IMG/VR virus record: IMGVR_UViG_3300045988_122441
Strand: one strand, 5' to 3'
DNA from: a virus
DNA: 64,000 nt
Each line of letters begins with the position of its first letter. The first letter of the stretch is position 1. A program made the position numbers and the translations under genes. Shown here piece by piece: positions 5,878 through 59,040 of this stretch. A model generated the notes under the pieces. It was not told where the DNA came from and did no database searches. It saw nothing but the letters and a program-made list of their open reading frames with translations.

Positions 5878-7080
5878 TTGATTATGGGAAGAGACTTAAA
5901 TGGTAAAGAACTGGGCAGAGGATTTAGTCAGAGAAAGGACGGTAGATACGAAGCCAGAGCCGTTATATGCGGCACAAAAATAGATATTTATGACATGAAT
6001 CTAGCAAAGCTGAAAAAGGAATTTGAAGCTGAGAAAGCTAGAGTGTTACGAGACGAAAAGAATGTAAGACCTAACGTCACGTTTGGAGAGTGGTATCAGG
6101 AATGGTTTGAAAAGTGTAAATCACCTCAGTTAAAATCTGATGTAAGCAGAAAGACGTATGACAGAAAAGTAAGAAATACCTACTGTAAAATTCTCGGAGA
6201 GAAACGAATGGAAAATATCTCTCAGATGAATATGCAGGCTGCTACAACAGAGTTGATTGAGAAAGGATATACAGACCGTTCTGTAAGAGAAGCTCTCGGA
6301 ATTGTGAACGAATGTATGGAGATTGCTATTGTAAACCACATCATCAATGTAAATCCATGCGTAGGAATTAAAATCCAGAATGCAAACGAGCGTAAAGAAA
6401 GAAGAGTTATGAAGCAGTGGGAACAGGACTTATTCTTGAACGAGGTCAAGGATAGATATTACTACGAAGCGTACAAGATTCTTCTTCTAACTGGAATGAG
6501 AATCGGAGAGTTCTCTGGGTTGCAATGGCGAGATGTTGACTTCGAGAATAAAGTCATCAATATTAATAGATCCATGCAGACCGCATATATTGACGGAAGA
6601 AAGATCGAGGAACTTACTACACCGAAAACAGCCAACTCATACAGAGCAATCCCGTTCTTTGGAGAAACAGAAGCTTGTTTGAAGAGCTGGAAGAAGAAGC
6701 AGGACGAGTATAAGAAACGTCTGGGTGACAGATGGAGAGCAAGACCTGAGTTAGGCGATCTTGTTTTTACAAGCACTGTAGGCTCGCCTGTGACTCGATA
6801 TGTCATTGTACATGACATAGACAAAGTAGTCCAGAACATCAATCTCAAAGAGATGACAAAGGCATTCAGAGAGCACAGAGAGCCAGTGATGTTTGAACAC
6901 TTACATCCACATGCTTTTCGCCACACATTTGCAACACGTTGTTTTGAAAAAGGGCTTGACCCATTGTTTGTACAGAGTATAATGGGACATGCCAATTATG
7001 CAACTACGGTGTCATATACACATATATTAGACGATTTGCGTCAGAAAGAGGTGCAGAAGGTTGGTAACTTCTTAGAGTAA
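5878..7080 (+). CDS. int: tyrosine integrase (phage integrase family)
   Basis: Catalytic block LHPHAFRHTFATR..GHANYATTVSYTHI. The upstream R is in LLLTGMRIGEF. An alternative ATG start is at 5884. Confidence 0.9.
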   Translation: MIMGRDLNGKELGRGFSQRKDGRYEARAVICGTKIDIYDMNLAKLKKEFEAEKARVLRDEKNVRPNVTFGEWYQEWFEKCKSPQLKSDVSRKTYDRKVRNTYCKILGEKRMENISQMNMQAATTELIEKGYTDRSVREALGIVNECMEIAIVNHIINVNPCVGIKIQNANERKERRVMKQWEQDLFLNEVKDRYYYEAYKILLLTGMRIGEFSGLQWRDVDFENKVININRSMQTAYIDGRKIEELTTPKTANSYRAIPFFGETEACLKSWKKKQDEYKKRLGDRWRARPELGDLVFTSTVGSPVTRYVIVHDIDKVVQNINLKEMTKAFREHREPVMFEHLHPHAFRHTFATRCFEKGLDPLFVQSIMGHANYATTVSYTHILDDLRQKEVQKVGNFLE

Positions 7081-12465: not shown

Positions 12466-12738
12466 TTAAATTAATGCGCTCAGCTCAATAATGCACTGTT
12501 TCATTTTTTCTGCTTCTGTCATTTCGCGGATAATGAATCTAGTATGACCATCCTCGCTCCAAATGTTTGTACAGGTCATATCCTTATAATCAACACCGCC
12601 AATATTTACACTGGATAAATTGGCATCAGACAGAATCTCAATATTAACTTCATCATCTGTGATGTAGTTGTTGCCATTCAGTGTAGCGTGAATCTCTGTT
12701 CCGTTTGCGAGGATAATATTGTAAATAGTATTTTCCAT
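12466..12738 (-). CDS. hypothetical small protein
   Basis: 90 aa. GGAGG lies 9 nt upstream of ATG 12738. The start overlaps the 3' tail of the RT gene by 86 nt. Confidence 0.5.
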   Translation of the reverse strand: MENTIYNIILANGTEIHATLNGNNYITDDEVNIEILSDANLSSVNIGGVDYKDMTCTNIWSEDGHTRFIIREMTEAEKMKQCIIELSALI

Positions 12739-13966
12739 CTATAAAACCTCCAAATAAGTCGTAGTAAAGAAGATTTAAGTTGTCACGTTGTATCTTACTC
12801 ATTAAGTATGCATGACCGCCAATCCAGGAACGAAACATATTCTCTATTTCTTCCTGTGTGCGTTCGCCTCTTTGTACTTTTCTACTCAATGCTTTGAGCT
12901 TACGTCTCATATCAACAATTCTCTGTGGGTTGATTTTCCTTATCACTCTTCCTGTATCAGTGAGAGAGTAGGATATCTGCAGAAAGCGATAGTAGTCTGA
13001 TAGCTTTACTATTCTTGTTTTCTTTCTGTTCAACGTCATTCCGAGTTCTGTTGCTTTAGCTGCAATCTTAGCTTCAAGTTCAATCAGATACTCTTTGCTC
13101 TGGGAAATCACATAGCTGTCATCCATATATCTGCCGTAGAATTTCTGACCTTCAACGATCTTGACGAAATTATCTATCTGAGTTGGATAGTATATGCCGA
13201 TAATCTGGGAACACTGATCTCCGATATTTACAGATTTCCTCATGAATTTCTCGCCTGTATGAGCAGATTTTGGAACGTTCAGTCTGTAGTCAGCAGAATT
13301 GAATGGCGTTTCCATACAATGTTCATATTCCTCGTCTGTCATATACGAGACATCAATCTTAAAATTATCGAATATTAAATCCAATAACCACAGCGAAAAT
13401 TCATCATGCACATGTTTTGCAATTTCTTGATAAGCAATATCATGCGGTATATTGTCATAGAATTTGCTGTAATCCATTAAAAGTATGTAGCCGTCATTCC
13501 CGTACAGCCGATAGTATTTGTGTAGATGCTCCTCGAATCTTTGTCTGCTAAAAGTAATTCCTTTCCCTTTCAGCGACGCTCCGTTATCATAAATTAGATA
13601 GGAGAGCAGACTCGGAGCCAAAATATTATCACAAAGAGAATGGCGGATAACCCTGTCAGACATCTGTAAACCTGTAATAGGTCGTGTTTTGCCACGCTCA
13701 CTGATAATAAACTCAGTAGAAGCTTTTGACTGATATGCCCTGTCTTTTAAAGCAGCTTTACTCTTAACGATATGTGGCAAGAAATTCATTTCATATTTCT
13801 GCACTTGAGGTTTCCAATCGGAATCTTTCTTTGCAGCCAAATATGCATGATAAAGTGAGTTTAAATTATATACAACATGACACCCATCTTCAAAATGTGT
13901 GTTTGTATCTGTCATTTCTTTCCAAAATATTTGACGTGTATAGCAATCAGTCGTAACGAATTGCAT
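12653..13966 (-). CDS. DGR reverse transcriptase
   Basis: RT motifs LLMDYSKFYDNIPHD, NIGDQCSQIIG (the DGR hallmark I/LGxxxSQ), YGRYMDDSYVIS (YMDD), LNRKKTRIV. Confidence 0.9.
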   Translation of the reverse strand: MQFVTTDCYTRQIFWKEMTDTNTHFEDGCHVVYNLNSLYHAYLAAKKDSDWKPQVQKYEMNFLPHIVKSKAALKDRAYQSKASTEFIISERGKTRPITGLQMSDRVIRHSLCDNILAPSLLSYLIYDNGASLKGKGITFSRQRFEEHLHKYYRLYGNDGYILLMDYSKFYDNIPHDIAYQEIAKHVHDEFSLWLLDLIFDNFKIDVSYMTDEEYEHCMETPFNSADYRLNVPKSAHTGEKFMRKSVNIGDQCSQIIGIYYPTQIDNFVKIVEGQKFYGRYMDDSYVISQSKEYLIELEAKIAAKATELGMTLNRKKTRIVKLSDYYRFLQISYSLTDTGRVIRKINPQRIVDMRRKLKALSRKVQRGERTQEEIENMFRSWIGGHAYLMSKIQRDNLNLLYYDLFGGFIDGKYYLQYYPRKRNRDSRYTEWQQLHHR

Positions 13967-15791: not shown

Positions 15792-17693
15792 TTATATACC
15801 TAATTTCTTTTCTAGTTTTTCTATACGGTCATTGAAATCCTGCATTTGCAGTTCGTCGTATAGCAATCTAACCAATAAAAAATGAGTATACTCAATGCAG
15901 TAATACTCATTTTCATCGTCTGGATTTAATTTTCGTGTGCCAAGCATCAGGAGTTTATCTTCAACTCCATGCCTAGCAAATGCATTTCGTAAATCTTGCG
16001 CCAGTATTCCGACACATAATTCCTCGTGGTCATAATCTGGTGCTGACATTCTAAACTGTACGAATCGGACTTCACCAACAGCCTGAATAATATTTCTTGC
16101 TATTGGTTCAATATCACGTTTCATACGTCTGTCTGATAGACTTCCACTCCATGTTCCATCAAGGAAGCCCTTTCCTGTTTGAGCCTTCACATGAACACCA
16201 TCTGATGCGGCATAAATGGAACCATTCTTTTGCTGAGTACCATTGTTGTTATAGTACCAGTCAGCCCATCCATAACCTCCTGATGTTGTTTCGTTCATTA
16301 ATTGAACACCTTTGAGGATACGCATCAACATAGCGCAGTCGATTCCGGCACGATTGGCTGTTTTACCGAAAGCAATACCATCACCACCAGCCTTATAGTC
16401 CATTGTTGCGAAGCCGTTTGATAATGTCATAGTGGCGACGGCTTCTTTCCCAGCTTTATCTCTGATGGTAAGTCTGATATCATATGCCTGCGTATCAGAC
16501 ACAGCAATTACACGGGTGTCACTCATATTTAATGAACTTGCGCTGATAGCAAGATTTGTCCATGCTGACTGACCTGCGATTCTATATTGCAGAACAGGAG
16601 TGATGGTATTGCCGGATATGCTACTTACAGAACCATTTGATACAATTTTCGCATGGTCTCCCGTATCGTCAGCTATGAAGTTACTTGTTGTACTTCCAGT
16701 TCCTCGTGATGCAGATATTTTCGCTGTAGGCAGGCTATAATCAGACACGGTAACTTTCATGGTTGCGGAGTTCGTCCTTCCACGACTATCTTTAGCGGTA
16801 ACTGTTATCGTTTTTTCTCCAGTTGATGTAAACGGGTCAAAAGTATACTCGGTTCCGCTTGAAGCAGTTTTGTCAGACATCCCGGTTACAGATATCTTGA
16901 GTGATGAAATAGTAGAGCTGTAGCTGCCAGATGCCGAGGGCTTAACCTTAACCCCAGATAGTAACTTCGCATAACATCCGAACGTGCTATTGGTGTTCGT
17001 GAGTGATGAGATGCTACATGACGGCTTCACACTTGCCGGGACATTGCATGTAAAAGATATGGACTTGCTTCCAATTTTGGTATTACCATTGTATGTATCG
17101 CAATATAATGTACCAACTCCTGAAGTGGCGTTTGGAACCATATGTGCCAGATCAAGAGGCGGAGTCCACGATACACTGGTGCTGGAAGATTTCGTGCATA
17201 TAGTGCCAGATTTTGTGCCGTATAAATATGTAATGGTGTGTGTAAAGCTTGTGCTTGCACGAGATACAGAAATTGTTCCGGCGCTGCCCATTGTAAGAGT
17301 TCCACACGAAATGGAAGATGCTCGTGGTATAACGTTAAGGGAGAATGTCTTGCTCTTACTTTTGTTGATAGCCCACTCATAAATACCAGCTTCAACAGAG
17401 ATGGAAAAAGACTTTGAACCATCGGCATTGTGATTCAATGTTTTGGAGCCACTACATATTTGTGTACCATTATATGCATCCGTGTGATGGCTGGAATCGC
17501 GATAAAATACCTGACTGCCATCAATTTTAATTCTAACCTCGCTGACTCGAACCCATCCAGAATATGAGCCGCTACCTTTGAGTGTCCATTTAATAGTGGA
17601 TTTGTTATTAGCTATATCCTGGGTTGCCGTCCAGCTCAGCGTGACACTGCGCTGTGAATATTCGCCAGTTGTCACGCTTCCGCTTAAAGCCAT
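15792..17693 (-). CDS. tail fibre protein with a C-terminal S74 intramolecular-chaperone domain
   Basis: N-terminus resembles DUF859 siphovirus proteins (SVTLSWTATQD..IKWTLKGSG). C-terminus SDRRMKRDIEPI..GILAQDL.. is typical of the endosialidase-chaperone (Peptidase_S74) domain. Confidence 0.7.
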   Translation of the reverse strand: MALSGSVTTGEYSQRSVTLSWTATQDIANNKSTIKWTLKGSGSYSGWVRVSEVRIKIDGSQVFYRDSSHHTDAYNGTQICSGSKTLNHNADGSKSFSISVEAGIYEWAINKSKSKTFSLNVIPRASSISCGTLTMGSAGTISVSRASTSFTHTITYLYGTKSGTICTKSSSTSVSWTPPLDLAHMVPNATSGVGTLYCDTYNGNTKIGSKSISFTCNVPASVKPSCSISSLTNTNSTFGCYAKLLSGVKVKPSASGSYSSTISSLKISVTGMSDKTASSGTEYTFDPFTSTGEKTITVTAKDSRGRTNSATMKVTVSDYSLPTAKISASRGTGSTTSNFIADDTGDHAKIVSNGSVSSISGNTITPVLQYRIAGQSAWTNLAISASSLNMSDTRVIAVSDTQAYDIRLTIRDKAGKEAVATMTLSNGFATMDYKAGGDGIAFGKTANRAGIDCAMLMRILKGVQLMNETTSGGYGWADWYYNNNGTQQKNGSIYAASDGVHVKAQTGKGFLDGTWSGSLSDRRMKRDIEPIARNIIQAVGEVRFVQFRMSAPDYDHEELCVGILAQDLRNAFARHGVEDKLLMLGTRKLNPDDENEYYCIEYTHFLLVRLLYDELQMQDFNDRIEKLEKKLGI

Positions 17694-25338: not shown

Positions 25339-28300
25339 CTACCACTGATATTTATTTTTCGAGAGCTTACTGCCACCAGATAACTGGTCAACAGTCATGG
25401 AACGAATCATCTTTTCAAATTTTCCGTCCTTACGCATCTGGTTCATAAAATCGTTGTAGTCTTGTACATGTTCTATCGGAATTGTTACCTGATAGGTGAT
25501 GTCTCCGATATTTGTTGTATCTTTTCCGGATATAGGCGCACTTACCTTAGCAAGCTGTGATAATACATTTGCAGCGCCCTCATCTCCTCCAAACAACTTG
25601 CTCAAAGGATTATTTCCATCAGCAATGCTTCTCATAGCATCTTTCAATGCAATGAAGTTCTGTGTGTCCTCTGGGTTTAGAACCATTTCTGGCTCTGTAG
25701 GAGAACCGTCAAGCCAAGCTACTCCGGTATAGTCGGCAAGACCACCTTTCTTGAATGCGCTGTAGTAATACTGGGATAATTTGCTCTTTCCGGTCTTTAC
25801 CCAGTAATTGTACAGATCACCATTGTTTGCATGAGCATTAATGTATTTCTGTACGGCAGCCGCATTAGAAGCACCAAACTTTGCTGTCAACCGCTTCTTT
25901 CTGTCAGGGTCATTTCCCCATCCAGACTTAGAGCCGTAAATCCAGATAGCTGCGGCAACACCACGTTTCACGTCCTCATTGAATTTTGGTTTCGTAGAGG
26001 TAGTCGTAGGTGTTTTTGGCGTGCTAGTAGATGTAGGCGGCTTCGCAGAAGTGTCTGTTTTGGTAGATGGAGTTGCAGAAGACACTGTCTTGTTAGCCTG
26101 ATTATCGCTTTCTTTGACCATAGCACCAATTTTGTATGCTATTTTTGTAATCACATCATTGACTGATGTAAGTTGTGTCAAGAAAGACTCTCCGTACTTT
26201 GTGATGATAGAGTATCCGCCACCCTCATTTGACCAAATGGACTTCATGGCAGCAGATAAATCATATCCAACTTTGTCGCTCTGTGTCTGTAACGTAGTGC
26301 TAATTGTTGCAGAGTTGGCATTGATTGTATCAATCATGTCAGAAATCAAAGCATCGATATTATCAAGACGTTCATTCAGAATTGCCTCGTACTCATCATA
26401 CAGATTATCAAGGAGCTTTTTCTGCTCACTGATATAGTGCTCATACTGCGTCTCCTCAAGGTCGTCCATAGCGTCAGCCAGGTCAACCTGAATCTTTTGT
26501 ATGGTAGCTCTAGTCTCTTCTGAATTATCACCGGAATATGCAGATAACTGTTTCTGCAGTTTAGCAATCTCTGATGACTGTTTTTCAATATCTTTCTGAT
26601 AATCATGTAGGTCTTTGGCGGTATCCATTGCCTCAGTGTATTTGTCAATCAAATCCTGTAAGGCATCAAGTTCTTTTTCGATACCATTAGCCACGAGGTC
26701 TTTAATTGCTTGCTTTTCATCCTCAGCCGCAATGATTGAATCACGCTGTGCCTCCAGTAATTCCTGGCGATGCTGTAACAGCGTTGTATTGTTTGGGTCT
26801 TTTGCAATCTCTGCATTTAACTTCTTCAATTCTTCTGCATACTTATCAGCCTGAGCCATGTATACATTGTAGTTTTGACCACGAAGACCTAGTGTTGCCA
26901 TACCAGTATCGGTAAATTTACCGTTATCAGTAAACAAATCAGTGTTCTCCATTAAGTCAATCATAAAGTTGGCTTCATCAGTAATATTACTGATCTGCTC
27001 TTGCAGATACTCAAACCGTTCCCACTTGATTTCTCGTATCGAATTATTGAATTCGATGACAGCGGTTTCAGACTTCTGAATAGATTCTTTTACCGAATTG
27101 ATATCGTTCTGCATGTCATACCATGCTTCACTGCCTTCTTTGATTTCTCCAGAATTTACAGCTTCTGACATTGCTTTTGTGAGAGAAGCAAGTTCCTTCT
27201 TCTGAATAGCAATATTCTGTTTTTCAACATTTCGCATAGCTTCATAGAATTTGGTACTTGCAAGATATCCGCGAGCTTCAAGGTTATCAATACCGTTGTC
27301 ATAGGTATTAGTCAGATGCTCCAACAGACTAAGTTGATTCTCAAAATCGTTTGAGAGATTATCAAATCTATCTTTATATAGGCTGGCAATTTCTTCATGC
27401 AATTCTGCGACGGCATCTTTTGCTTTAATTGCTTTCTCATAGAAATCTTGATAATCCTTAATCTTATCAGCAAGGTCTTCGTCTGTGACGGTTGTGATAT
27501 CAATAGAACCATTCTGAATCTTTTTGACCCAAGATTGATCCAGACCAAGCGAGTTGGCTTTCGCCATATATCCCTCGTATGCCTTGTTTTCTACATCAAT
27601 CTTCTTTGTAATAGCTGCCATTTCTTTGACGGTAGCTTTATTACGGGTGCTAAGAGTTTGGAATGCACTGTCGGCTGTTATCTTTAGCCGATCAATAGCC
27701 TCTGTAGCTCTATCGACAGCTATGGCAATAAGGTCAAATACTTCTTCAAATTCTTTTTCTTTGGTAGATGTAGAATTTGATTTTGATTTTGAACTTCCGC
27801 TAGACCTTGTCCTGGAACCGCCGGATGATTTAGAACCACTTGAACTCTTCTTAGAAGAAGATGGTTTTCTGCTTGTAGAAGAGGCACTCGGTTTATATGG
27901 CTTATAACCACCAGTGACCATTGCAGTACCGCTTACAAGGGCAGAAGCTCGTCCGGCAACATAGCCATTCTCCAACAGACTTTCTGTTTGTCTATGGTTG
28001 AATACAATAGCTCCAGCAGGTATATCTCTGAATTCAGCACCGTTGTCGCCAACTGTATACCACTTGCCTGTGCGTGGGTCTACGACGATTTCTCGTCCAA
28101 GTTCTCCAACAAGTGTACGTCCTCCTGGGGCAGTTCCCCAGTCGCCGCCCACTCTTGCAGTACCGCCCGCATGAGCAGTACCATTAACACTGACATCTCC
28201 AGTCTTCACGTAATTTACATATCTTGTGATAGTGCTAAATGAACCTGGAAGATTTGCTGTATCCGCAACATAATTAACTGTTCTGTTAATAGATGGGAAA

Positions 28301-31039
28301 GAGGTTGGCAATAAATCCGTCTTAGGGTCATAGATCACGTCGCATGTCTTAGACTCTGGATTGTACCCATCAATAGCGGAGGCATCTACTTTTGCCTGAA
28401 CATTAATTGTTTCTGCCGATAAATTTGCGATTGATGTCTGAATAGATTCTACGGACGTAGAGTCTATATTCAACTTCGCTTTAATATCTGGCGAAAGATT
28501 CTGAATTTCAGAAGCGAGAGAGTTTACCTGAGATTCAGCCTCGCTAGTGTCAGCACCTACTTTCTGCTTGATTTCCAGATCATTTGTGGCATTCTGGAAT
28601 TGCTGCAGAAGTGAGATTGCGTTGCTGACTTCGCCCTCAACCTGAGAAGCATCGACACGCATAACATCAGGCTGTGAAAGGAGCTGCTTCTGTGTAAGGC
28701 AATACTGAATAACAGCGTTGGCATTGTCAATGCTCGAAGCATCGACATCCGGTCTAGCTTTAATGCTATCCATCTCAGCAATCGTTGCATCGAGGGCATT
28801 GATCTGTTCCTCTGTTGTAGAAAGATCAGATACATCCATCTTAATTTTCAGATCGCTGTTGCCGTCTAACTGTCGTAACGATTCAGCAGCTTCATTGGCT
28901 TCTACAGCTAAATCACCTACTGTTTTAACTGCTTCGTCTCCCCAGTCAAATTCAGCACCTTTCAACTGTAATTCATCGAAAAATGCCTGGACAACACCAG
29001 AAGATAAGTTCAGTCCCTCTGCGAAGTCCTCCATCTTCTTGCCACCGAGGACTTTAAATCCGTCATCTTCGCTATATGACATCAGTCCGGCATCAACAGA
29101 TTTCTGAAGGAATTTATCAATATCAAGACCGTCAACAACTCCGTCGTCATCGAATCTCAGATACTGTTTGAAGTCCGACATATAGGACTCAATAGCACCG
29201 AGATCTTCACGATCAACAGAATCTGGTACGATGAAATCTACGGCAGCTTCAAATTTCTTTGAACCAAAGTTCCCATAGATATCAGAGTTCGCATCGTATG
29301 TATCACGAATTTGCTGTATAGCACTAACAGTATCATTCGCCATATCTCCATAATCAGAAGCACTCTGTGCATTTAACCAATGCTGGTAAGCACCAACAGC
29401 TTCCTGAATAGAAGCGGAGAGTAAGTCGTACTGAGCACATGTATCAGCAATAGCACTGTTTTCATCCAGTAAGGCATCTATTGAAGCCTGTATGCTGTCG
29501 GCTGTTTCGCCTTCTGCAAAACTTGCATCCCGTAACTGCTGACGATATTGTTCAATCTGTCGTGCGTTCTCAAGATATTGAGATTGTGCCAGTGCCTTGT
29601 TTGTGTTGTTGATAGCAACCTGTTCGTCTGCTTTGGCTTTAGCAATTTCTGCTACTTTATCCGCATTTAACTGCATTGTGCCATTGACATACTCAAGAGC
29701 ACTTCGATAATCTGCGAGTTCATCAGAATTGAAATCTTCTACGGATATAGACTTTCCGGTCATCTGACCGTTTAATACAGACTGTACTGCATCAATCTGA
29801 GATGTCAGCTCCTGCGTTGCTTTAGTTGTATCGTCTACGGCATTCTGAATTCTTTCTGCATTGGATACGACAGCCTCGCCCGCATCGTCCGTAGCTTCTG
29901 CACTGGAATTGATAAGATCTACGAAGTCGCTGATTGATAATCCGGCACCTTCAATGGCAGAAGCGAGTTCAGGATATTTTTCCTTTACATCGTCAACCGA
30001 TATACCAGCTCCGTCAGTAGCCTTTGCTAATTCTGTGAGTTCATCCTTAGCCTTCTTGTATTCATCGCTATTTAATATTTCATTAAATTGCATCTGTTTC
30101 CAAGCAGTAGGGTCTAATTCTGAGTAGATATAGGCAATCTGGTCATCAATCTGACTTAACACATCTGAAGCGCCGTCAACCTTTGCAAGTTCTTCTTCGG
30201 GGAGAGCTTTAAGCGTGTCTCTATATTCTGTAAGAAGTTTTACCTGATCCCAGATAGAATCTGTTAAATCCTGATTCAGATCGTCGTAATGTTGGATGTC
30301 TTCTTCCAACCATTTGATATCATTCTCATTTCCATCCTTCTGTGCTTTTGCAAGCTCATCCTTAGCTTCTTGCTTCAAAGCATCGAACTGTTTTATAGCT
30401 GCAAGCATAGAAGAAACATCAGTCGGCTCGACAGTAAGACCAGCATTATTCCCCGTCATCTGAGCATAATCTTGACGCTCTTTGGTTTGACTTGCACTGA
30501 TTTCATTTTTGAAATTCTTTTTATATGCTGAAACAGTATCTTCAGCAGCTTGTCTGGCTGCTTTATTTTCTTCTCTTTCAGCTAAGTCCTGCTGAATTAA
30601 CAGCTGTTCAGTAGCATCTTTGAGCTTCTGGAGTTCTGCCTCCTCCACAAATGTAAGATGTTCTTTACCAAGCAGCTCATCCATAGAAGCCTTTGTTGTG
30701 TCTAATTCTGAGTTGACACTTTCGAGATTAGACTGAGCTTCTTGATAAGCACTGTATGAATCACGCATCTTATCATTAGCTTCTGATGCAGATACATATG
30801 CCTTTGATATTGCGTAAATACCTGCGGCAACGGCAGCCGCAATAGCGACAATCGGTACAAGTGTTCCGGATAACGCAGCAGCTCCAGCAGATAATGTTCC
30901 GAATACGCCAGCTCCACTCGAAGCGGCTGCAGCCATCTTTGCAATCGCATCTCCTACACTACCGAAAGATAACTGTAGCGCCACGAATACATCTGATAAA
31001 GACTTTATTCCTCCGATGTCTTTAGTAACAGACAATAGA
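25339..31039 (-). CDS. tail tape measure protein, 3' exon (C-terminal ~1900 aa)
   Basis: Long coiled-coil sequence. N-terminal hydrophobic Ala/Gly-rich segment. TMP-type block GGDWGTAPGGRTLVGELGREIVVDP. No SD before the ORF-track ATG at 31056, so it probably needs splicing to the 5' exon. The 5' boundary is approximate. Confidence 0.7.
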
Positions 31040-32042
31040 CATGTCGGGTATTTCATGGTAAAATTGAATAAAATCTATGGGAGGTATATTTATGGCTTTG
31101 ATAAAATGTCCCGAGTGCGGACAAGATGTGTCTGATAAAGCAATACAATGCATCCATTGTGGATATCCTTTAAATATCCAGAAAGATAGTGCTTATGATA
31201 TTATCTATAATGGATTTGAAAATAATTCATTAAAATACAAGTATCAAGCAAATCTGATAGGATGTATAAGACAACTGCTGAAATTAGATTTAACAACTGC
31301 GAAAATGATTATTGACAACCCACCATATACTCTTTTCCATTCTGTATCAAAAGAACAGGCAGAATGGATTATTACAACATTAAAACCGTTTCAATGCAAT
31401 GTTACTGCAAACGAATCTAATAGCGATATTCAGTCAAATATTGAAATTGATTCTTATATGGCAAACGGATCAACATTGATATGCCCGCATTGTGGTTCTA
31501 ATGAAGTTATAACAGGTCAAAGAGGCTTTTCATTATTAACCGGATTTATAGGCAGTAATAAAACCATCAATAGATGTGGAAAATGCGGATATAAATGGGA
31601 ACCGTAATTTATGTCTTCTTATCGACGCTGACATATGCGTACCATGATTAGAGTGAGAGATAAGTTCTCACTACACGAGGACTATACATTAAAAGTCGCT
31701 ACACTAGGCAGTAGCGGCTCAAAGGGTGGGTAGTCTCTGAGGATGAAGCTGTGAGTCTTCGTCCGGCTGATGTCATCCTATCTGCAGAAATATCTGCGTA
31801 GCACTTAGGCTTACTATCACCATATGCCATCCAATCATTTGTTTCTGCCTTTCGCAACGTTCACGCTTATTGTTTCCAATTACGTTGTAGTATGATTGGT
31901 TTAACCAGTTTCCCAGCAATTACCCCTTTGTGTGATTTGTTTTAAAACGCTCACCCATAGCCTTGGCTCATATCTCCAAAATTGATATGTCCTTGACCAT
32001 GCCGACCTCTGTTACAGATAACCCATGATTTTGGGTCAAGCC
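31040..32042 (-). mobile_element. group I intron in the tape measure gene (catalytic core about 31950-31650; splice sites approximate)
   Basis: Read in minus sense. P-like AAUUGCUGGGAAA. Q-like GCCUAAGUGCUACGCAG. R-like UCAGAGACUAC. S-like GUAUAGUCC. Pairings seen: P3 CAAAGGG (31930-31924) / CCCUUUG (31726-31720); P5 CCAAUCAU / AUGAUUGG; P7 GACUA / UAGUC; P8 CGCUAC / GUAGCG; P9 AGUGAGA / UCUCACU. Confidence 0.7.
31092..31607 (+). CDS. double zinc-ribbon protein with a ribosomal L7/L12 C-terminal-like middle domain, encoded antisense within the intron
   Basis: GGGAGG at 31079-31084, then ATG 31092. CPECG..CIHCG and CPHCG..CGKCG ribbons. Middle segment LIGCIRQLLKLDLTTAKMIIDNPPYTLFHSVSKEQAEWIITTL resembles the L7/L12 CTD. 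Confidence 0.65.
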   Translation: MALIKCPECGQDVSDKAIQCIHCGYPLNIQKDSAYDIIYNGFENNSLKYKYQANLIGCIRQLLKLDLTTAKMIIDNPPYTLFHSVSKEQAEWIITTLKPFQCNVTANESNSDIQSNIEIDSYMANGSTLICPHCGSNEVITGQRGFSLLTGFIGSNKTINRCGKCGYKWEP

Positions 32043-33829
32043 ACGTTCTTGATAATTTTGGCTATTCCTAATCCTACAAGAATGGTCTTTAATGAACCAA
32101 ACGTGCTGATTACTTTATCAATAGCCTCTACAATACCTCTAAGAGCATCGACAGCTCCTTTTGTAAAGTCTGAGTCGAAAACGTCAGAAGAGAGTTCCTG
32201 AAATGCAGCTTTCAGCTCTCCAACTTTTGCCTTAGTGGTATCCATGTAAATATTGTTTGCTTCTGTTGCAGTTCCAGCAGAATCCATAGCACTTGCATAA
32301 GCACCGATAGCATCCTTGATATTAGTGATTGTAGACATAATACCTGATGTATTACGTGTACCACCAAGAATTTCTGCAACACGAGACTGGGATACATCTT
32401 CCATGTTGTCCCAAACTTCTGCAAGCTGTACGAAGATGTCATACATATCCTTATATGTGTTTTCATCTTTCATGATGTCAACGCCGGATAATGCCATGAT
32501 TTCTTCTCTATACTTAGACAGACCCTGAGCTAATCCGTCTGTCTCTTCACCCATTTCCTCAAGCTCTGTTGTAGCCCCTCGGATACGAGCACTTACTGTT
32601 TTCCACATTGTACCTGTGGTTTCAGCATTCTGAAGGGATGCGTTTGTTGCGGCGAACAAAGCAGCACTCTTCTCGAAGTCAGTTCCAGAAGCATGGAGTG
32701 CAGCACCACCTCGCTGAAACGCAGCCATAAGTTCCTCGGCTGAGATAGCGTATTCCTGACCTACCTTTACGAGCACATCTGATACGTGTTCTGCATCACT
32801 TGCATCCATTTCGTATCCCTTTATGATAGAAGTAATACCAGTTGTAGCAGTGTCCACGTCAGTGTTACCGACATTTGCCATGATATTTGCATATTTAGCC
32901 AAATTCGATGAATCGCTCATGTTGTATCCGAGTCGAGCAAATGTTTCGATAGATGATGCTACATCAGTTACACTCTGACCAAGCTCTTTTGCAAGAGAGA
33001 TGGACTTCGTAAGAAACGCTTCCATTTGAGAATCAGAGGCTCCAGTTACAATCTGGATCTGAGCCATAGCACTTTCGACTTCAACAGCAGCAGAGACCAT
33101 CTGTTTTACAGTTCTAATCGCATACATGATTGCCTGTGAAACCGTCAACCATGAAGAGAATTTTGAAGCCAGACCGGATATTCTGTCACCAAATGACTGT
33201 GTATTTTCTCCAGCTGTTCTGATAGCAGTTGATGCATCAGTTACAGTTGCTTTAATAGAGGCAAAACGCTCTTTGAACTGTTCAGCCGAAACAGATCCAT
33301 TCATTAACCCTGTTTTTAACGCTTCTAATGCAGTGATCTGGTCTTTAAGCGCAGAATAGCTTGTACTGGTATTACCGTTTCTTGCCGCAGTCCATTTCTG
33401 AGTATTTACAGTTACCTGTCCAAGAAGATTGTTTACTTTGGTCAAAGCATCTGTATGTTTCTTTGTGCCGACTGCAAAAGCATTTTCACTCGCTGCAGCC
33501 TGTTTTGTAGCATCGGCGGCTTTCCTTGTAGCATTGGCATTAGCATTTTTTGCCTGTGTGTTGGCATTGATAGCTGCGGTATCTTTTACCCATATTCCTG
33601 AATTGGTCTTTGTGTATCCACCTGCTAACTTTGCCGCATTTGCGCTCGATGCAGCCTTAGTCATAGATTCAATCTGCTGTCTCATAGAAGACAGGGACGA
33701 ATCATCAAATTTAAGTTTTATTTTCGGTGGATTAGCATTGACCTGAGAAACCAGACTGGTAATTCCCGCCTGAAATTCAGCATAGCTCAACGAAGTATCC
33801 ACGCCGACTGTCAGTAAAATGTCAGCCAT
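32036..33829 (-). CDS. tail tape measure protein, 5' exon (N-terminal ~595 aa)
   Basis: TP901-type TMP core (QIQIVTGASDSQMEAFLTKSISLAKELGQSVTDVASSIETFARLGY). The frame stops at UGA 32038-32036, exactly where the intron-like sequence begins. Confidence 0.75.
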   Translation of the reverse strand: MADILLTVGVDTSLSYAEFQAGITSLVSQVNANPPKIKLKFDDSSLSSMRQQIESMTKAASSANAAKLAGGYTKTNSGIWVKDTAAINANTQAKNANANATRKAADATKQAAASENAFAVGTKKHTDALTKVNNLLGQVTVNTQKWTAARNGNTSTSYSALKDQITALEALKTGLMNGSVSAEQFKERFASIKATVTDASTAIRTAGENTQSFGDRISGLASKFSSWLTVSQAIMYAIRTVKQMVSAAVEVESAMAQIQIVTGASDSQMEAFLTKSISLAKELGQSVTDVASSIETFARLGYNMSDSSNLAKYANIMANVGNTDVDTATTGITSIIKGYEMDASDAEHVSDVLVKVGQEYAISAEELMAAFQRGGAALHASGTDFEKSAALFAATNASLQNAETTGTMWKTVSARIRGATTELEEMGEETDGLAQGLSKYREEIMALSGVDIMKDENTYKDMYDIFVQLAEVWDNMEDVSQSRVAEILGGTRNTSGIMSTITNIKDAIGAYASAMDSAGTATEANNIYMDTTKAKVGELKAAFQELSSDVFDSDFTKGAVDALRGIVEAIDKVISTFGSLKTILVGLGIAKIIKNVA

Positions 33830-51103: not shown

Positions 51104-51889
51104 TTACACACCTAAATTTTTCCTTCGCATGATGTAGTTTACCCGCTGTTGAACGGCTATTTCTGTGGCGCACGCTTTGCAGAATTTCTGTTTCCGTCCT
51201 TTTTCTGGGTCTGTATATTTTACTGTAATACCGCAATTTTCGCATTCAAAGTACGGGTTACGTTTATGCTTTCTATATTTATATTTCATATACTGATACC
51301 CCAGATTGCGAAAATCTGATACCGATAAAGCAACAGGAGAGGAGCCATCTACGAAGCATACACGAACGTTTGTGTTATCAATACGCTTAGAGAATCGGAG
51401 TAACCCAGCATCTTTTAATACGCCGTATAATAAACATTGCCGTTTAATAGATGTATTAATATTTGCAAGAGCCATTATTTCATTATCCTTATTATTTACC
51501 CAGTAATCAGTCTCCGGTGATACAGCATACCAATATTTAGCAAGACACAGAAGAGTAAAGGCTAATCTCTCTAGCTGGACACCATCCAATGACTCGATAA
51601 GCTTCAGCTCATTCTCTGTAATATCGAGTTGGTCAATATCGACTGCTTCATATTTGAAAGCACTGGTTACTGCGTACTCAAGAGCTGCGTCCCATTTTGG
51701 GAGAGAAGCAAGTGGGTCGCATTGTAATAGGAAGATATCCAGTTTCTGACGTACTTCTTTTTTCTTTTCATACCCATTATCTATGTAATATCTCGCAATG
51801 CGACGCAATGTTTCAGATGGTTTCTTTCCAAGTGATTTGGACTGAATCATTTTTTCAGCCCAATCATTTTCTTTTAATACAATACTCAT
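51104..51889 (-). CDS. hypothetical protein with a C-terminal zinc finger
   Basis: 261 aa. CENCG..CKAC. Coupled to the upstream RNAP-like gene. Confidence 0.45.
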   Translation of the reverse strand: MSIVLKENDWAEKMIQSKSLGKKPSETLRRIARYYIDNGYEKKKEVRQKLDIFLLQCDPLASLPKWDAALEYAVTSAFKYEAVDIDQLDITENELKLIESLDGVQLERLAFTLLCLAKYWYAVSPETDYWVNNKDNEIMALANINTSIKRQCLLYGVLKDAGLLRFSKRIDNTNVRVCFVDGSSPVALSVSDFRNLGYQYMKYKYRKHKRNPYFECENCGITVKYTDPEKGRKQKFCKACATEIAVQQRVNYIMRRKNLGV

Positions 51890-54633
51890 TCGTTCACCTC
51901 TAATTTCTTTGATACTATTTTGAATCGTTCACCACAATACTCAATGTCACCATCTGCATCCAGTGTTGGGAAATTAACTGTGTGATTATGGTTTAATAAT
52001 AAATTATGTATAATTTCTGAGCCACACATATTCCAAGCAAATCTTTTGGATGAGCTTTTCTGGTAGCACAGATCCAGAACAATATTGCACAGAGCGGACT
52101 CATTCTGGCAGATAATATCACAGGATTTGCGGAACTCTGCATTCATTTCAGAAAGTTCTGTAAATGCGTCGTACTTGTCGATCTTTTCGCTCTGAGCAAA
52201 TACGGTATAGCTCTGCATTTTTTTGTTGTAGTCTTCATAAAGCTTTTTGATAGCCCTATATTGCGTGGTGGTATAATCCTCAGAAGCATTTTTCATAATC
52301 GTGTAATCAAACTTGATTTTGGAATTATGCTTTCTGATATACCCATCAAACTCTTGCTCGAATCGTTTGCATATTTTGTTCATGACACACTCGCCAGTAC
52401 CTACAGGCATCCGGTAGTCATAATATCTAAGAAAATCAGATTGCCGTTCTGTCAGCTCATCGGCAGGAACCATTCTCAACTCATCAACAGTCATCTGGAA
52501 TTCTCTCAGGCAGTTTCGATTCGTATTTTTTATGTATTGATTATATTGTTTCATGAGAGCTGGGTAGATATATCTCATAAAGTATGGCTTCTTGTCAGCA
52601 ACAATACTTCTATAGAAGTCCCTTAGTTCATCATCCTCGATTTTATTTGCAGCGTGTCTATCGTGCCATGTTCTCGGCATCGGCTTGCAAATAATTCCTT
52701 TCGCCTTGTCGATTGCATTCTGCTGATATAACTGACCGCATCTGATACGATAGGAGAGTGTGTCGTACTCAACACTTCCTTTTGGATAATGAGAACGAAC
52801 CTCGAACATTGATGTAATATAGTTTGTTGTCTGTCCGATGTCATTACCGAAGCTCTCAATATTGGAACGTACAAAATCGTCTTCAGTAGGAATTGTCTTA
52901 GCTGCCTTTCGCTGAGCGCACATAAGAGCCGGAAGCGGTTCTAACTTCTCAACGAGGATTCTATTGTCACTGAGCATGACCAAATCACCGTCAAAGTCCA
53001 TTCCGTTTAATGCAGCAGCTGCGGTGTCCCATGCGTTGAAAATCGTACAGGTCTTCATATGTTGATACCAATAATCAGCATCGGAGCTATGAACGGGATA
53101 TACCAAACGGATGTTATTGTGGCAGGTCATAGGCGCACGAAAACAAGCAAGCTTCTCTGAACCAAAATCTCTCCAGTATTTATTGTAGATTTCTCCAGAT
53201 TTCAACAGACCGGTTACTTCCAATCCAAACATGTTCTGGCAGAGTGCGTATGGATCACCAGACACTATAGAATAATTGCCATGAACTTTAAGTACGCCCA
53301 CTTTAGCTTCATCGATACGATTTTTGATAAGCTGGTATATTGCGTTTTGAACAAACGGGTCATCAATCATACGCTTATCAATCATAATTGCCTTTACAAA
53401 ATCATCATCCAGATTTTCAATATTGGACTCATTCATACCGATGCCTTTTAAAAACAGCAGTGTTTTACGCCAATCACCATGGAGAACGTCTTTGATTTCA
53501 TTCATAGTTGGGGCTATCAGTTCTTCAATCTCATCATCGGATAAATTGTAGCTCTGAATGAACTGATAGTTCAGTGAGTGCTCACTTTCCAATTCTTTTG
53601 GACAGGTCTTTGCGATTCCGAATGTGTATCCGTTGGATAATGAGTTTCGTACATACGCTTCGCAGCTATCATAACTATCCCAGAGCTTTACCATAGAAGT
53701 AGTGAGAATCAATTCTACATCACGCACATCGAAATCATTTCCCCACGCATCTTTGATAATGTATTTTCCTCCGGCAATCTTTTCTGCAAAATCTACATAA
53801 TCAAATGTGAAAGCCATTCCTTTTTCAAATGAGAAGCGGGTATTTGCTCCACTGATTGTATAGTCGAGTCCAAGCTCTTTGCTCCAACGCTCTGCGAGTG
53901 ATGGGAGCATCATTCCGAAACCATCTGATGCATCAAGATCAACCTTTTGCTGTTTCTGTAACTCCATTGTCGGTTCGCCATCGCATTCATCAGTCAGATA
54001 TACAATGTCAGAGAGGAACGAAGTCTCGCAGTCATTTACTACAGCGATTCCTTTCGGGAATGAAACTGGAGTAGAAGCACTACAGGTGAGAGCCTGATAC
54101 GCTTCGAGCTTTGCAGTAACCAGTTCTTTTTCTGGATTTCGTCCATTGGATATTCTGCGATGCAGTTCGTCAATAACCTTTTCGCTTACAAATACGATAG
54201 TGCTGTTCTTGATTCCACCATTGGTTCCGAGCAGGCGTCGATATTTTACGCCATTGATCTGAAAGCCTTTGCAGGCACGATAGTAGTCCTTTTCTTTGTC
54301 AATAATCAGAGTAACATAGTCTGCCTTATACTGAAGCTGATCCAAATCCTCATACAGTTTCTTAATGGCGTGTCTGTTTTTTACGCTGTTTGGAGCAGTT
54401 CTTAAACTGCGAATCTCTTCCTTGATTTTTTTAGCTTCAGCGTCTGCATCTGTGATGTCATTCAGATAATCAATCCAGCGCAATGTCTGGCTGTCCGCAA
54501 GAGATATCACTTCTTCATTCCTTCTTGCTTCCTCGATCGGGAGTGTTAGCCGCCAACGATGTTTACGAAGGCGGCTACTATGTAGCTTATAAATAAATTT
54601 TTGACAAGTAAGTTGCTTGCTAATTTTGAACAC
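51886..54633 (-). CDS. YonO-like single-subunit two-barrel RNA polymerase
   Basis: ACFRAPMTCHNNIRLV resembles the beta-prime NRAPTLH motif. LNGMDFDGDLVM resembles the universal NADFDGD metal-binding loop. 915 aa, similar in size to SPbeta YonO. GTG start with a weak SD. Confidence 0.65.
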   Translation of the reverse strand: MFKISKQLTCQKFIYKLHSSRLRKHRWRLTLPIEEARRNEEVISLADSQTLRWIDYLNDITDADAEAKKIKEEIRSLRTAPNSVKNRHAIKKLYEDLDQLQYKADYVTLIIDKEKDYYRACKGFQINGVKYRRLLGTNGGIKNSTIVFVSEKVIDELHRRISNGRNPEKELVTAKLEAYQALTCSASTPVSFPKGIAVVNDCETSFLSDIVYLTDECDGEPTMELQKQQKVDLDASDGFGMMLPSLAERWSKELGLDYTISGANTRFSFEKGMAFTFDYVDFAEKIAGGKYIIKDAWGNDFDVRDVELILTTSMVKLWDSYDSCEAYVRNSLSNGYTFGIAKTCPKELESEHSLNYQFIQSYNLSDDEIEELIAPTMNEIKDVLHGDWRKTLLFLKGIGMNESNIENLDDDFVKAIMIDKRMIDDPFVQNAIYQLIKNRIDEAKVGVLKVHGNYSIVSGDPYALCQNMFGLEVTGLLKSGEIYNKYWRDFGSEKLACFRAPMTCHNNIRLVYPVHSSDADYWYQHMKTCTIFNAWDTAAAALNGMDFDGDLVMLSDNRILVEKLEPLPALMCAQRKAAKTIPTEDDFVRSNIESFGNDIGQTTNYITSMFEVRSHYPKGSVEYDTLSYRIRCGQLYQQNAIDKAKGIICKPMPRTWHDRHAANKIEDDELRDFYRSIVADKKPYFMRYIYPALMKQYNQYIKNTNRNCLREFQMTVDELRMVPADELTERQSDFLRYYDYRMPVGTGECVMNKICKRFEQEFDGYIRKHNSKIKFDYTIMKNASEDYTTTQYRAIKKLYEDYNKKMQSYTVFAQSEKIDKYDAFTELSEMNAEFRKSCDIICQNESALCNIVLDLCYQKSSSKRFAWNMCGSEIIHNLLLNHNHTVNFPTLDADGDIEYCGERFKIVSKKLEVNE

Positions 54634-58239: not shown

Positions 58240-59040
58240 ACAAAAGACAGAGCGAAAAGGCTGAGAACTCAGAGAGTTCGCCTATGTCAGATGTGCGGTA
58301 TATAAATATGATCTGACATAGTACATAAACCGCCATGATTAATAAGTTTCTAAAGAAGAGTCTCTCTATATTGAGGGGCTTTTCTTTATGGGCTTATGTC
58401 CATACGACTGTGAGGTCTACCTGCTCACAGGTAATAAGTGCATATACCGGTATCTTTCGGGGTATCGTGAGGGCTACCTGTGTGATAGGAAATAAGTGAA
58501 CTATACCAGTTGAAGCGTTCAATATGGGAAATCCGGCAAAAGGACGCTATACAAATAGTTTCGGTGAGCCGACCTACCGACGGCTTTAGAATATCGGCAA
58601 AACTCTGCGGTTATCGTGGATTCCTTTAACCGATTTGAGGGAGTACATCTGCTATCAGATGCGTCGATGGTGCATGAGAGTTAGGCTCATGGTTTCGAGA
58701 TAGTGAAAATCCCCATAGTTCGGCAGTTCGTTAGATGTGAAACTTTGCCGCATAATCCTGAGTGCGTCAACATGAGGGATAGCAGGAAAAATCTGTTGAG
58801 GTTTCCAATCGTAGTGGTATCAGTACCCGAGGGTACATCGGCTATGTTCCGAGGAATTAAATGCCGGACTATTGCGGGATTTCCGATGCAGACGGAGTAT
58901 AGCGAAATAAAACTGAATATTAAGCGGAGTGTGCAAACATTCCGATAAACCTATATTGAGCGTCCGAGATTGTGTATATCGCATGGTTTCGGGCGTTCTC
59001 TTATGGGCTTATCCCATGTAACAAAGAAAATAGAGAATCC
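58240..59040 (+). ncRNA. candidate large structured non-coding RNA region (family unassigned)
   Basis: About 800 nt with only one weak GTG-started ORF. Appears more GC-rich than neighbouring DNA (by eye, not counted). Many hairpins. Two long stems (58356-58383, 58960-58996) pair fully only in plus sense because they need G-U pairs. An internal duplicated ~60-nt module is present. Confidence 0.4.

Follow-up and report, generated by a model that had tools for sequence, protein, structure and literature searches.

A predicted group I intron with an opposite-strand gene in its P9.1 loop interrupts the tape measure gene of a gut Clostridia phage

The viral DNA analysed here, IMG/VR record IMGVR_UViG_3300045988_122441 (64,000 nucleotides (nt), the whole of which we call the window), encodes on its minus strand a tail tape measure protein (TMP) that is laid out as two open reading frames (ORFs). 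Taken as a whole, the observations are best explained, in our view with good confidence, by a self-splicing group I intron that lies within a single TMP gene of 2494 amino acids (aa) and houses, in the loop of its P9.1 helix, an independent gene read from the opposite strand (the antisense gene). The first part of this reading, that one tape measure gene is split by a group I intron, we regard as highly probable.

Two open reading frames of the tape measure gene

The upstream ORF (32036-33829, 597 aa) contains the phage minor tail/TMP domain PhageMin_Tail (PF10145), and the second (25339-31056, 1905 aa) lies about 1 kb downstream of it on the same strand; both appear in the ORF list as an earlier reading of the sequence (the original prediction) had described them. 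We divide the region as follows.

32039..33829, minus strand: TMP exon 1, 597 codons ending ..AAG AAC GUG GCU, assigned from the ORF and PF10145; its last nucleotide, U32039, forms an invariant U.G pair with G32007
31033..32038, minus strand: predicted group I intron, 1006 nt, opening with the in-frame stop UGA and ending with omega-G 31033
25339..31032, minus strand: TMP exon 2, 1897 codons and a stop, starting UCU GUU ACU.., in a frame consistent in all clades

Joined together, exons 1 and 2 form one ORF of 2494 aa with no internal stops. Protein searches returned hundreds of near-identical relatives from gut metagenomes, all with the same split, in which exon 1 ends in ..(K/M)(N/S)(V/I)A and a stop codon and exon 2 begins after a gap of 1-1.2 kb. 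More distant TMPs (loci L012 and L014, 42% identity; L017, L021 and L022, 32%) are intron-less and run uninterrupted across the insertion site, and removing the intron restores a frame that is collinear with these homologues and is kept in every clade. In the clades of L001, L010 and L016, coding homology to exon 2 reaches back 34 codons beyond the earliest codon that could serve as a start and ends at an in-frame TGA, which in the L001 clade contains the splice site; because these 34 conserved codons lack a start codon, exon 2 is not translatable alone in these clades. The continuous intron-less homologues, the start-less exon 2 homology of the L001 clade and covariation for a complete group I fold bear out the central claim of the original prediction, a group I intron inside one TMP gene.

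Comparative evidence for a group I fold

In order to evaluate the RNA structure, we detected intron homologues by nhmmer and assembled an alignment (A4) of 16 sequences whose ribozymes are 74-99% identical to that of the window. Their sources are viral contigs, metagenomes and metagenome-assembled genomes of GTDB (Ruminococcus, Oscillospiraceae, Clostridia, Gastranaerophilales). Each row covers the stretch between exon position -14 and the point where the conserved 5' part ends and, after a linker, takes in the last 44 intron nt and 10 exon nt; truncated or rearranged introns (L058 and the L074 type) were left out. The structure comprises Pex (a second exon-binding helix), P1, a P1-loop hairpin, P2, P2.1, P3, P4, P5 with five extension helices, P6/6a, P7, P8, P9, P9.1, P9.2 and P10, for a total of 117 pairs in 23 helices. 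Across the alignment 95.2% of cells are paired, versus 33-44% in controls with slid partners, and 65 of the 117 pairs are changed on both sides (compensatory), versus 12-18 in the slid controls. The covariation score is 0.367 as compared to 0.05-0.08 for slid partners, and none of 500 shuffles reaches the observed values. RNAalifold independently recovers P2, P3, P5, P6, P8, P9, the long-range P9.1 and the 8-bp P10 from the same alignment. Helices P3 to P8 occur in the canonical order with a P3/P7 pseudoknot, and compensatory changes are found in P3, P5, P6 and P8. The elements of the fold, from the intron's 5' end, are these.

32021..32036, minus strand: P1-loop hairpin, ACCCA/UGGGU
31956..32001, minus strand: P2 and P2.1; P2 pairs CAUGGUC (32001-31995) with GGCUAUG (31962-31956), 5 of 7 pairs compensatory, and encloses the P2.1 hairpin (31989-31969)
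31924..31930, minus strand: P3 5' strand, CAAAGGG, with its partner at 31726-31720
31913..31917, minus strand: P4 5' strand, GCUGG, with the invariant partner UCAGC at 31770-31766; assigned by analogy with the consensus of the Rfam group I model RF00028
31784..31899, minus strand: P5 and its extension, P5 being 31899-31892 paired with 31838-31831; 21 of 32 pairs compensatory
31784..31899, minus strand: parts of the P5 extension in this stretch, namely two GNRA-capped hairpins (31885-31863 and 31856-31846) and a second arm (31829-31784)
31741..31770, minus strand: P4 3' strand (31770-31766) and the P6/P6a hairpin (31764-31741)
31720..31735, minus strand: P7 5' strand, GACUA (31735-31731) within UCAGAGACUAC, then P3 3' strand, CCCUUUG (31726-31720)
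31694..31719, minus strand: P8 hairpin, 7 of 8 pairs compensatory
31680..31684, minus strand: P7 3' strand, UAGUC within AAUGUAUAGUCC, invariant
31653..31671, minus strand: P9 hairpin, AGUGAGA/UCUCACU
31640..31647, minus strand: P9.1 5' strand, UCAUGGUA, which pairs across the antisense ORF with UACCAUGA; 4 compensatory pairs
31617..31639, minus strand: P9.2 hairpin (31639-31626), 74% paired and thus more weakly supported, and the conserved GAUAAGA (31623-31617)
31053..31060, minus strand: P9.1 3' strand, UACCAUGA, whose opposite strand is part of an extended -10 promoter

The J6/7-P7 string UCAGAGACUAC and the J8/7-P7' string AAUGUAUAGUCC are invariant in the intron family and match the RF00028 consensus strings at the level of sequence, and the strings of the P7 5' and P3 3' strands are also present in introns that RF00028 recognises. 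The P5 extension amounts to ~135 nt, including the two GNRA hairpins. GAUAAGA is the final conserved ribozyme sequence ahead of the ORF, and P9.1 closes over a 580-nt loop. P7.1 and P7.2 are absent, the P7 5' strand being followed after 4 nt by the P3 3' strand, and the intron is therefore not of the IA type usual in phages.

Much of the core had been located correctly at the outset. All of the strings quoted in the original prediction are present; its P, R and S elements are correctly placed; and its P3 (CAAAGGG/CCCUUUG), P5 (CCAAUCAU/AUGAUUGG), P7 (GACUA/UAGUC), P8 and P9 are real helices by the comparative alignment. Its Q element (GCCUAAGUGCUACGCAG) does not form the P4 3' strand but lies in the P5 extension, the invariant P4 partner being UCAGC. 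Its P6 (GCAGA/UCUGC) is likewise a real hairpin but belongs to the P5 extension rather than to the true P6. Two other candidates for P4 were discarded. A pairing through CCUAAGU(G) turns one pair (C137-G249) into C-A in five sequences and was replaced by the invariant UCAGC, and the P4 drawn by RNAalifold (a GCUGG/CUGGU hairpin), together with a GAU/AUC helix, is invariant and clashes with the canonical P4.

Predicted splice sites and exon pairing

Only one model is in frame for all clades: it cuts after the U preceding the stop codon (..GUG GCU/UGA) and joins to a conserved G/UC(U/C)G (G31033/UCUG in the window). We therefore predict, again with good confidence, that the 5' splice site is U32039 and the 3' splice site G31033. 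The sequences that would position the exons are as follows.

32003..32015, minus strand: internal guide sequence, consisting of GUAACAGA (32015-32008, P10 strand) and then GGUCG (32007-32003, P1 strand)
31025..31032, minus strand: P10 strand of the 3' exon, UCUGUUAC, the first 8 nt of exon 2, pairing with GUAACAGA
32043..32049, minus strand: exon strand of Pex, AGAACGU, exon positions -11 to -5
31944..31950, minus strand: intron strand of Pex, GCGUUUU, in J2/3 after P2

In P1, the exon end (U)GGCU pairs with GGUC(G). The U32039.G32007 pair is U.G throughout (16 of 16 sequences), whereas each of the remaining three of the four pairs changes in compensatory fashion, from GGCU/GGUC to UGCU/GGCG (L050), AUCU/GGAU (L055, L061) or UGUU/GACA (L054). 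P10 has 8 bp, of which 5 are compensatory, with 94.7% of cells paired; UCUG/CAGA, for example, becomes UCCG/CGGA in L055. A G directly precedes exon 2 (omega-G) in 14 of 14 sequences. Pex has 7 pairs, 3 of them compensatory, and takes the forms AGAGCAU/AUGCUCU in L050, UGAGCAU/AUGCUCA in L060 and AAGAGU/ACUCUU in L061. The original prediction had taken this AGAACGU/GCGUUUU pairing for P1; the helix is genuine and covaries, yet it does not hold the splice site. In an alternative model the prediction had the 5' site right at U32039 but placed the 3' site at G31075 instead of G31033. L001, in which an in-frame TGA stands just ahead of exon 2, rules out the use of G31075. In L001 and L044, G-to-A or G-to-U changes disrupt an alternative P1 through GGCUAUG (31962-31956), that strand being part of P2, and a CUUGACC/GGUCAAG pairing lacks compensation in the clades with a TAA stop.

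By analogy with the chemistry of group I introns, exogenous guanosine would attack after U32039, with the 5' exon held by about 12 bp: P1 (the last 4-5 exon nt) and Pex together are predicted to grip the last ~12 exon nt across a three-way junction. The first 8 nt of exon 2 would pair with GUAACAGA, directly 5' of the P1 guide, to form P10; omega-G31033 would then enter the G site and the exons would be ligated. Translation of unspliced RNA would end at the UGA that opens the intron. The predicted protein junction is ..KNVA/SVTKDIGG.., the corresponding ligated-exon RNA or DNA junction ..AAGAACGUGGCU/UCUGUUACUAAAGAC.., the junction 36-mer ATTATCAAGAACGTGGCT/TCTGTTACTAAAGACATC and the expected intron-less TMP site ..AAGAACGTGGCTTCTGTTACT...

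The antisense gene and its product

Most of the gap between the two TMP ORFs is filled by a plus-strand ORF (31077/31092-31607) that the original prediction overlooked. Its features are listed here.

31092..31607, plus strand: antisense gene, 171 aa (MALIKCPECG...), in the P9.1 loop; the real start is ATG 31092
31036..31064, plus strand: predicted promoter, TAGACA, 17 nt, TGgTAAAAT, with the -35 element overlapping the 3' splice site
31080..31084, plus strand: Shine-Dalgarno sequence GGAGG, 7 nt ahead of ATG 31092

The promoter is predicted to be of the sigma-A type with an extended -10. All 14 clades share this arrangement, with a -10 element, a -35-like hexamer overlying the 3' splice site and a strong Shine-Dalgarno sequence; the -10 is the extended TGGTA(T/A)(A/G)AT in 13 of them and TATAAT without the TG in L044. 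Since promoter signals sit on the 3' splice site in all clades, the last 60 nt of the intron appear to be functional on both strands: one strand supplies RNA structure and the splice site, the other the promoter and the 5' untranslated region. The antisense gene is under purifying selection, with a dN/dS of 0.05-0.10 between close pairs. Its GC content is 32.8%, as compared to 42-43% in the exons and ribozyme, and clades whose ribozymes are 91-96% identical enclose ORFs that are only 39-48% identical as protein, which points to allele exchange or fast evolution. The same contrast speaks for selection acting on the ribozyme RNA.

The protein consists of an N-terminal zinc ribbon, a middle domain with the fold shared by the C-terminal domain (CTD) of ribosomal protein L7/L12 and ClpS, and a highly conserved C-terminal zinc ribbon with a Gly/hydrophobic loop. 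An AlphaFold model has a mean pLDDT of 83.7, with about 90 in the middle domain, which superposes on the L7/L12 CTD (1ctf) with a TM score of 0.88 and a root-mean-square deviation of 1.6 Å. The score against PF00542 is 25.5 bits, just under the cut-off of 25.9, and that against TIGR00855 is 16.8 versus a cut-off of 84.4. Three public records of relatives (P0188, P0197 and P0222) are named 'ribosomal protein L7/L12'. This label is a misnomer, as the CTD-like fold alone is shared: unlike L7/L12, the antisense protein has no N-terminal dimerisation/L10-binding domain and its middle domain is flanked by two zinc ribbons. No defence-system match for the protein was found in searches that included PADLOC.

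Expression by the host polymerase, for instance in lysogeny, would fit a sigma-A-type promoter that lies opposite the late operon. Most likely the antisense gene is an accessory gene that is expressed in this way, independently of the late operon, and for which the intron loop is a safe insertion site.

Distribution of the family and loop cargo

The antisense-protein family has 1389 detectable members. Of six members sampled, five are placed upstream of a giant TMP exon 2 in divergent orientation, and the intron core was found in four of these five loci, with a weak signal in the fifth. In every clade, the most divergent (L054, L057) included, no gene is closer to the 3' splice site than the zinc-ribbon gene.

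In L055, L070, L061-65, L098 and L054 the loop measures 1.5-3.8 kb and holds additional genes, the extra cargo in the P9.1 loop reaching about 3 kb. Introns of the same family span 2.5-3.8 kb in L061 (2949-5475), L062-64, L054 (3879 to about 7900) and L098. The additional P9.1-loop genes of the L061-64, L054 and L098 introns encode a DUF2513 protein, a proteasome-like protein and a 443-aa ORF, some of the ORFs being on the sense strand. In L065 a LAGLIDADG_2 gene stands upstream of a short exon 1, which suggests that this TMP has a second intron. L018-L020 were considered as a second intron type with a zinc-ribbon gene and set aside, as they have neither an intron core nor an Rfam match; in L018 a shorter, 149-aa zinc-ribbon relative (2276-2725, minus strand) lies divergently upstream of a TMP-like gene without a detectable intron, and an ATPase-like gene pair lies upstream of this relative.

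Rearranged versions also occur. At ~2900-3900 of L074 (also in L078, L089 and L095) an intron without P1, P2 and the 5' strand of P3 is joined to an unrelated gene and a terminator-like hairpin, and exon 2 starts at an ATG (MKSPISLLSV) within the intron tail. This type could be a rearrangement or an independently expressed exon 2.

Genomic context

The window is a prophage, with genes for an NrdD of host type, a tyrosine integrase, a lysin, tail fibres, a reverse transcriptase and an RNA polymerase that is YonO-like (RdRP family), and tail genes of relatives match the SPbeta YomU and YomW families; the phage that carries the intron is an SPbeta-like temperate phage of gut Clostridia. The anaerobic ribonucleotide reductase gene nrdD (1715-3937, plus strand) is followed by the integrase gene (5878-7080, plus strand), and one end of the prophage is probably between about 4 and 8 kb. 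A 915-aa protein (51886-54633, minus strand; PF05183, RdRP family) belongs to the family of the SPbeta single-subunit RNA polymerase YonO, which suggests that the late genes are served by their own polymerase. The reverse transcriptase gene (12653-13966, minus strand; PF00078), close to tail-fibre genes (DUF859 protein, 15792-17693), may be part of a diversity-generating retroelement. The only match at an Rfam gathering threshold in the window is a RAGATH-16 RNA motif (58646-58718, plus strand; 89.8 bits versus a gathering threshold of 65.6). Megablast of the intron region against GenBank phages gave no match.

Evidence against the proposed intron and alternative explanations

A number of observations weigh against an active intron that carries a passenger gene. 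The covariance-model scan that the original prediction had named both as its check and as a possible refutation came out negative with RF00028 at three settings: there was no group I match at the gathering threshold (Rfam 15, whole window), and relaxing the limit to E<=10 brought up nothing either in 30800-32300 or in the isolated 300-nt core. The same model detected many phage introns in other fetched loci, which served as positive controls. P4 (GCUGG/UCAGC) and P7 (GACUA/UAGUC) are 100% paired but invariant, and were placed by position and the RF00028 consensus strings rather than by covariation. Searches found no close intron-less allele (above about 45% identity) and no junction-spanning protein among the top protein-search matches, and a scan of viral contigs for the 14-mer ligated junction gave chance matches only; in the absence of a close intron-less allele, the junction rests on RNA pairing and reading frame and not on a direct empty-site comparison. 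The window carries an ATG (31056), inside the 3' tail of the intron, in the frame of exon 2, and in the rearranged L074 exon 2 stands behind an unrelated gene, making its independent expression conceivable in some lineage. Lastly, the very conserved position of the antisense gene could reflect a role tied to the intron rather than that of a simple passenger. With regard to Rfam, we judge the miss to be a false negative, a failure of model sensitivity, for which the large P5 insertion is the likely cause; the P4-P5 relatives in Staphylococcus phages are likewise missed by RF00028.

These observations bear on three alternatives. Rather than a passenger, the antisense protein might be the intron's own mobility or maintenance factor, for example a splicing cofactor or a homing endonuclease of a new kind. 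Its gene being nearest the 3' splice site in every clade and the exon-2 context of five of six sampled members would fit such a role, as would the exchange of alleles, or their divergence, without regard to the ribozyme, a behaviour also seen in homing endonuclease genes; antisense homing endonuclease genes, moreover, exist in nuclear group I introns (PMC9548176). We nevertheless think this improbable. Beyond zinc-ribbon and L12-like matches, the protein matches no nuclease family in Pfam, PHROGs, NCBIfam or PADLOC, a single PHROGs family labelled HNH giving a marginal E=0.0046; Foldseek searches of PDB and BFVD returned L7/L12 and ClpS folds and no nuclease fold; and the family alignment contains no invariant catalytic set of His, Asp or Glu. 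The P0197 homologue is free-standing beside a resolvase without an intron, and no close intron-less alleles of the kind that would signal ongoing homing were found.

It is much less likely still that no splicing takes place and that a cassette, consisting of a dead intron remnant and the opposite-strand gene, has split the TMP into two separately translated genes. The negative Rfam result, ATG 31056 and the L074-type contigs, with their 5'-truncated intron, speak for such a split. However, the ribozyme is the most conserved sequence of the region and has many compensatory changes, and P1 and P10 follow changes in the exons; the original prediction was right that ATG 31056 has no Shine-Dalgarno sequence ahead of it, as read directly in the sequence; the L001, L010 and L016 clades have no start codon over the 34 conserved codons; and homologues free of the insert are single genes.

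Finally, the preferred model of the original prediction, with AGAACGU/GCGUUUU as P1, cleavage after U32043, omega-G at G31040 and a KNV/LLSV junction, has next to nothing left in its favour, for although its helix is real and covarying, ends in a U.G (U32043.G31950) in the window clade, and gives an in-frame product in the window and L001, there is no G of the required phase upstream of exon 2 in L044 or L050, 6 of the 16 sequences have U-A as the last pair of the helix, no P10 adjoins the GCGUUUU guide while a canonical P1 and P10 guide with an invariant U.G is present at 32015-32003, and the intron-less L017 retains an Ala (..KSIA..) that this junction would delete.

Relation to known introns

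The original prediction overstated the rarity of TMP introns, as a 2008 report (Tourasse and Kolsto, PMC2504315) describes prophages of the Bacillus cereus group whose tape measure genes contain group I introns (TMP-IVS1/2/3), at three sites, of types IA1/IA2, and several of them without a complete homing endonuclease gene. These are similarly self-splicing-type group I introns in a prophage TMP with P1 and P10 fitted to the exon (PMC2504315). They differ in having P7.1/P7.2, which the window intron lacks while having a large P5 extension, and in occupying another insertion site in other hosts than gut Clostridia, with no antisense gene mentioned in the section cited (PMC2504315). Other virion genes, too, are known to contain introns (PMC3706429; PMC4299906).

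Compared with the RF00028 consensus, which cyanophage introns (L047 and others) match, the window intron shares the order of helices, J3/4-P4 (AAUUGCUGG), J6/7-P7 (UCAGAGACUAC) and J8/7-P7' (AUAUAGUCC), and differs in the ~135 nt in P5, in P2/P2.1 with the second exon-binding strand and in the 580-nt P9.1 loop. Similarity is also found in Staphylococcus phages (the tail tube gene of Kayvirus phiIPLA-RODI, and Sextaecvirus PMBT8), where unannotated elements with 72-80% nucleotide identity over P3-P4-P5 are situated in virion genes, after split structural genes. In these elements similarity is recognisable in the P4-P5 domain only, and they are followed by sense-strand ORFs ('Ioh') and not by an antisense zinc-ribbon gene. 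In phiIPLA-RODI (L096, 2001-2117) the P4-P5 similarity follows a short 'tail tube' coding sequence, precedes the coding sequence 'Ioh', and is RF00028-negative and unannotated. PMBT8 (L097, 887-2123) has three tandem RF00028 matches within 1 kb and a fourth, RF00028-negative P4-P5-like element, all unannotated.

Nuclear rDNA group I introns can carry antisense His-Cys homing endonuclease genes, an example being Didymium L2066 (PMC9548176). As in the window, the gene lies opposite the ribozyme strand, in a peripheral loop, with its own expression signals (PMC9548176). The Didymium intron, however, is eukaryotic and encodes a proven endonuclease, whereas the window gene has bacterial-type signals (sigma-A promoter, Shine-Dalgarno) and a product without a nuclease signature. 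The limited literature searched yielded no description of a conserved, self-promoted, opposite-strand non-endonuclease gene carried by a group I intron in a phage, which is absence of evidence and not proof. TMP introns as such have already been reported; the antisense non-endonuclease gene is the new element.

Implications

The intron corrects the annotation of a phage lineage that is very common in the human gut, in which hundreds of contigs show the TMP as a pair of genes, one for a protein of 597 or 709 aa and one for a protein of ~1900 aa, with the antisense ORF labelled 'ribosomal protein L7/L12'. It also exposes a blind spot of RF00028, to which a widespread family of Clostridia-phage introns with relatives in Staphylococcus phages is invisible. 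The bipartite binding of the 5' exon, by P1 and by a second guide strand after P2, would be a variation on how group I introns retain that exon. A bolder proposal, which we think rather unlikely, is that the zinc-ribbon/L7-L12-CTD/zinc-ribbon family (~1400 members) is an unrecognised class of intron-associated factors and the P9.1 loop a promoter-equipped cargo bay for prophage accessory genes within the late operon; such a factor might be a homing or maintenance protein free of nuclease motifs, or might couple late TMP splicing to translation or lysogeny. On our preferred reading, that of an intron with an independent accessory gene, a bacterial group I intron carries in a peripheral loop an independently promoted, opposite-strand, non-endonuclease gene, with several such genes in its relatives, and the intron may offer accessory genes a neutral landing pad within an essential late gene.

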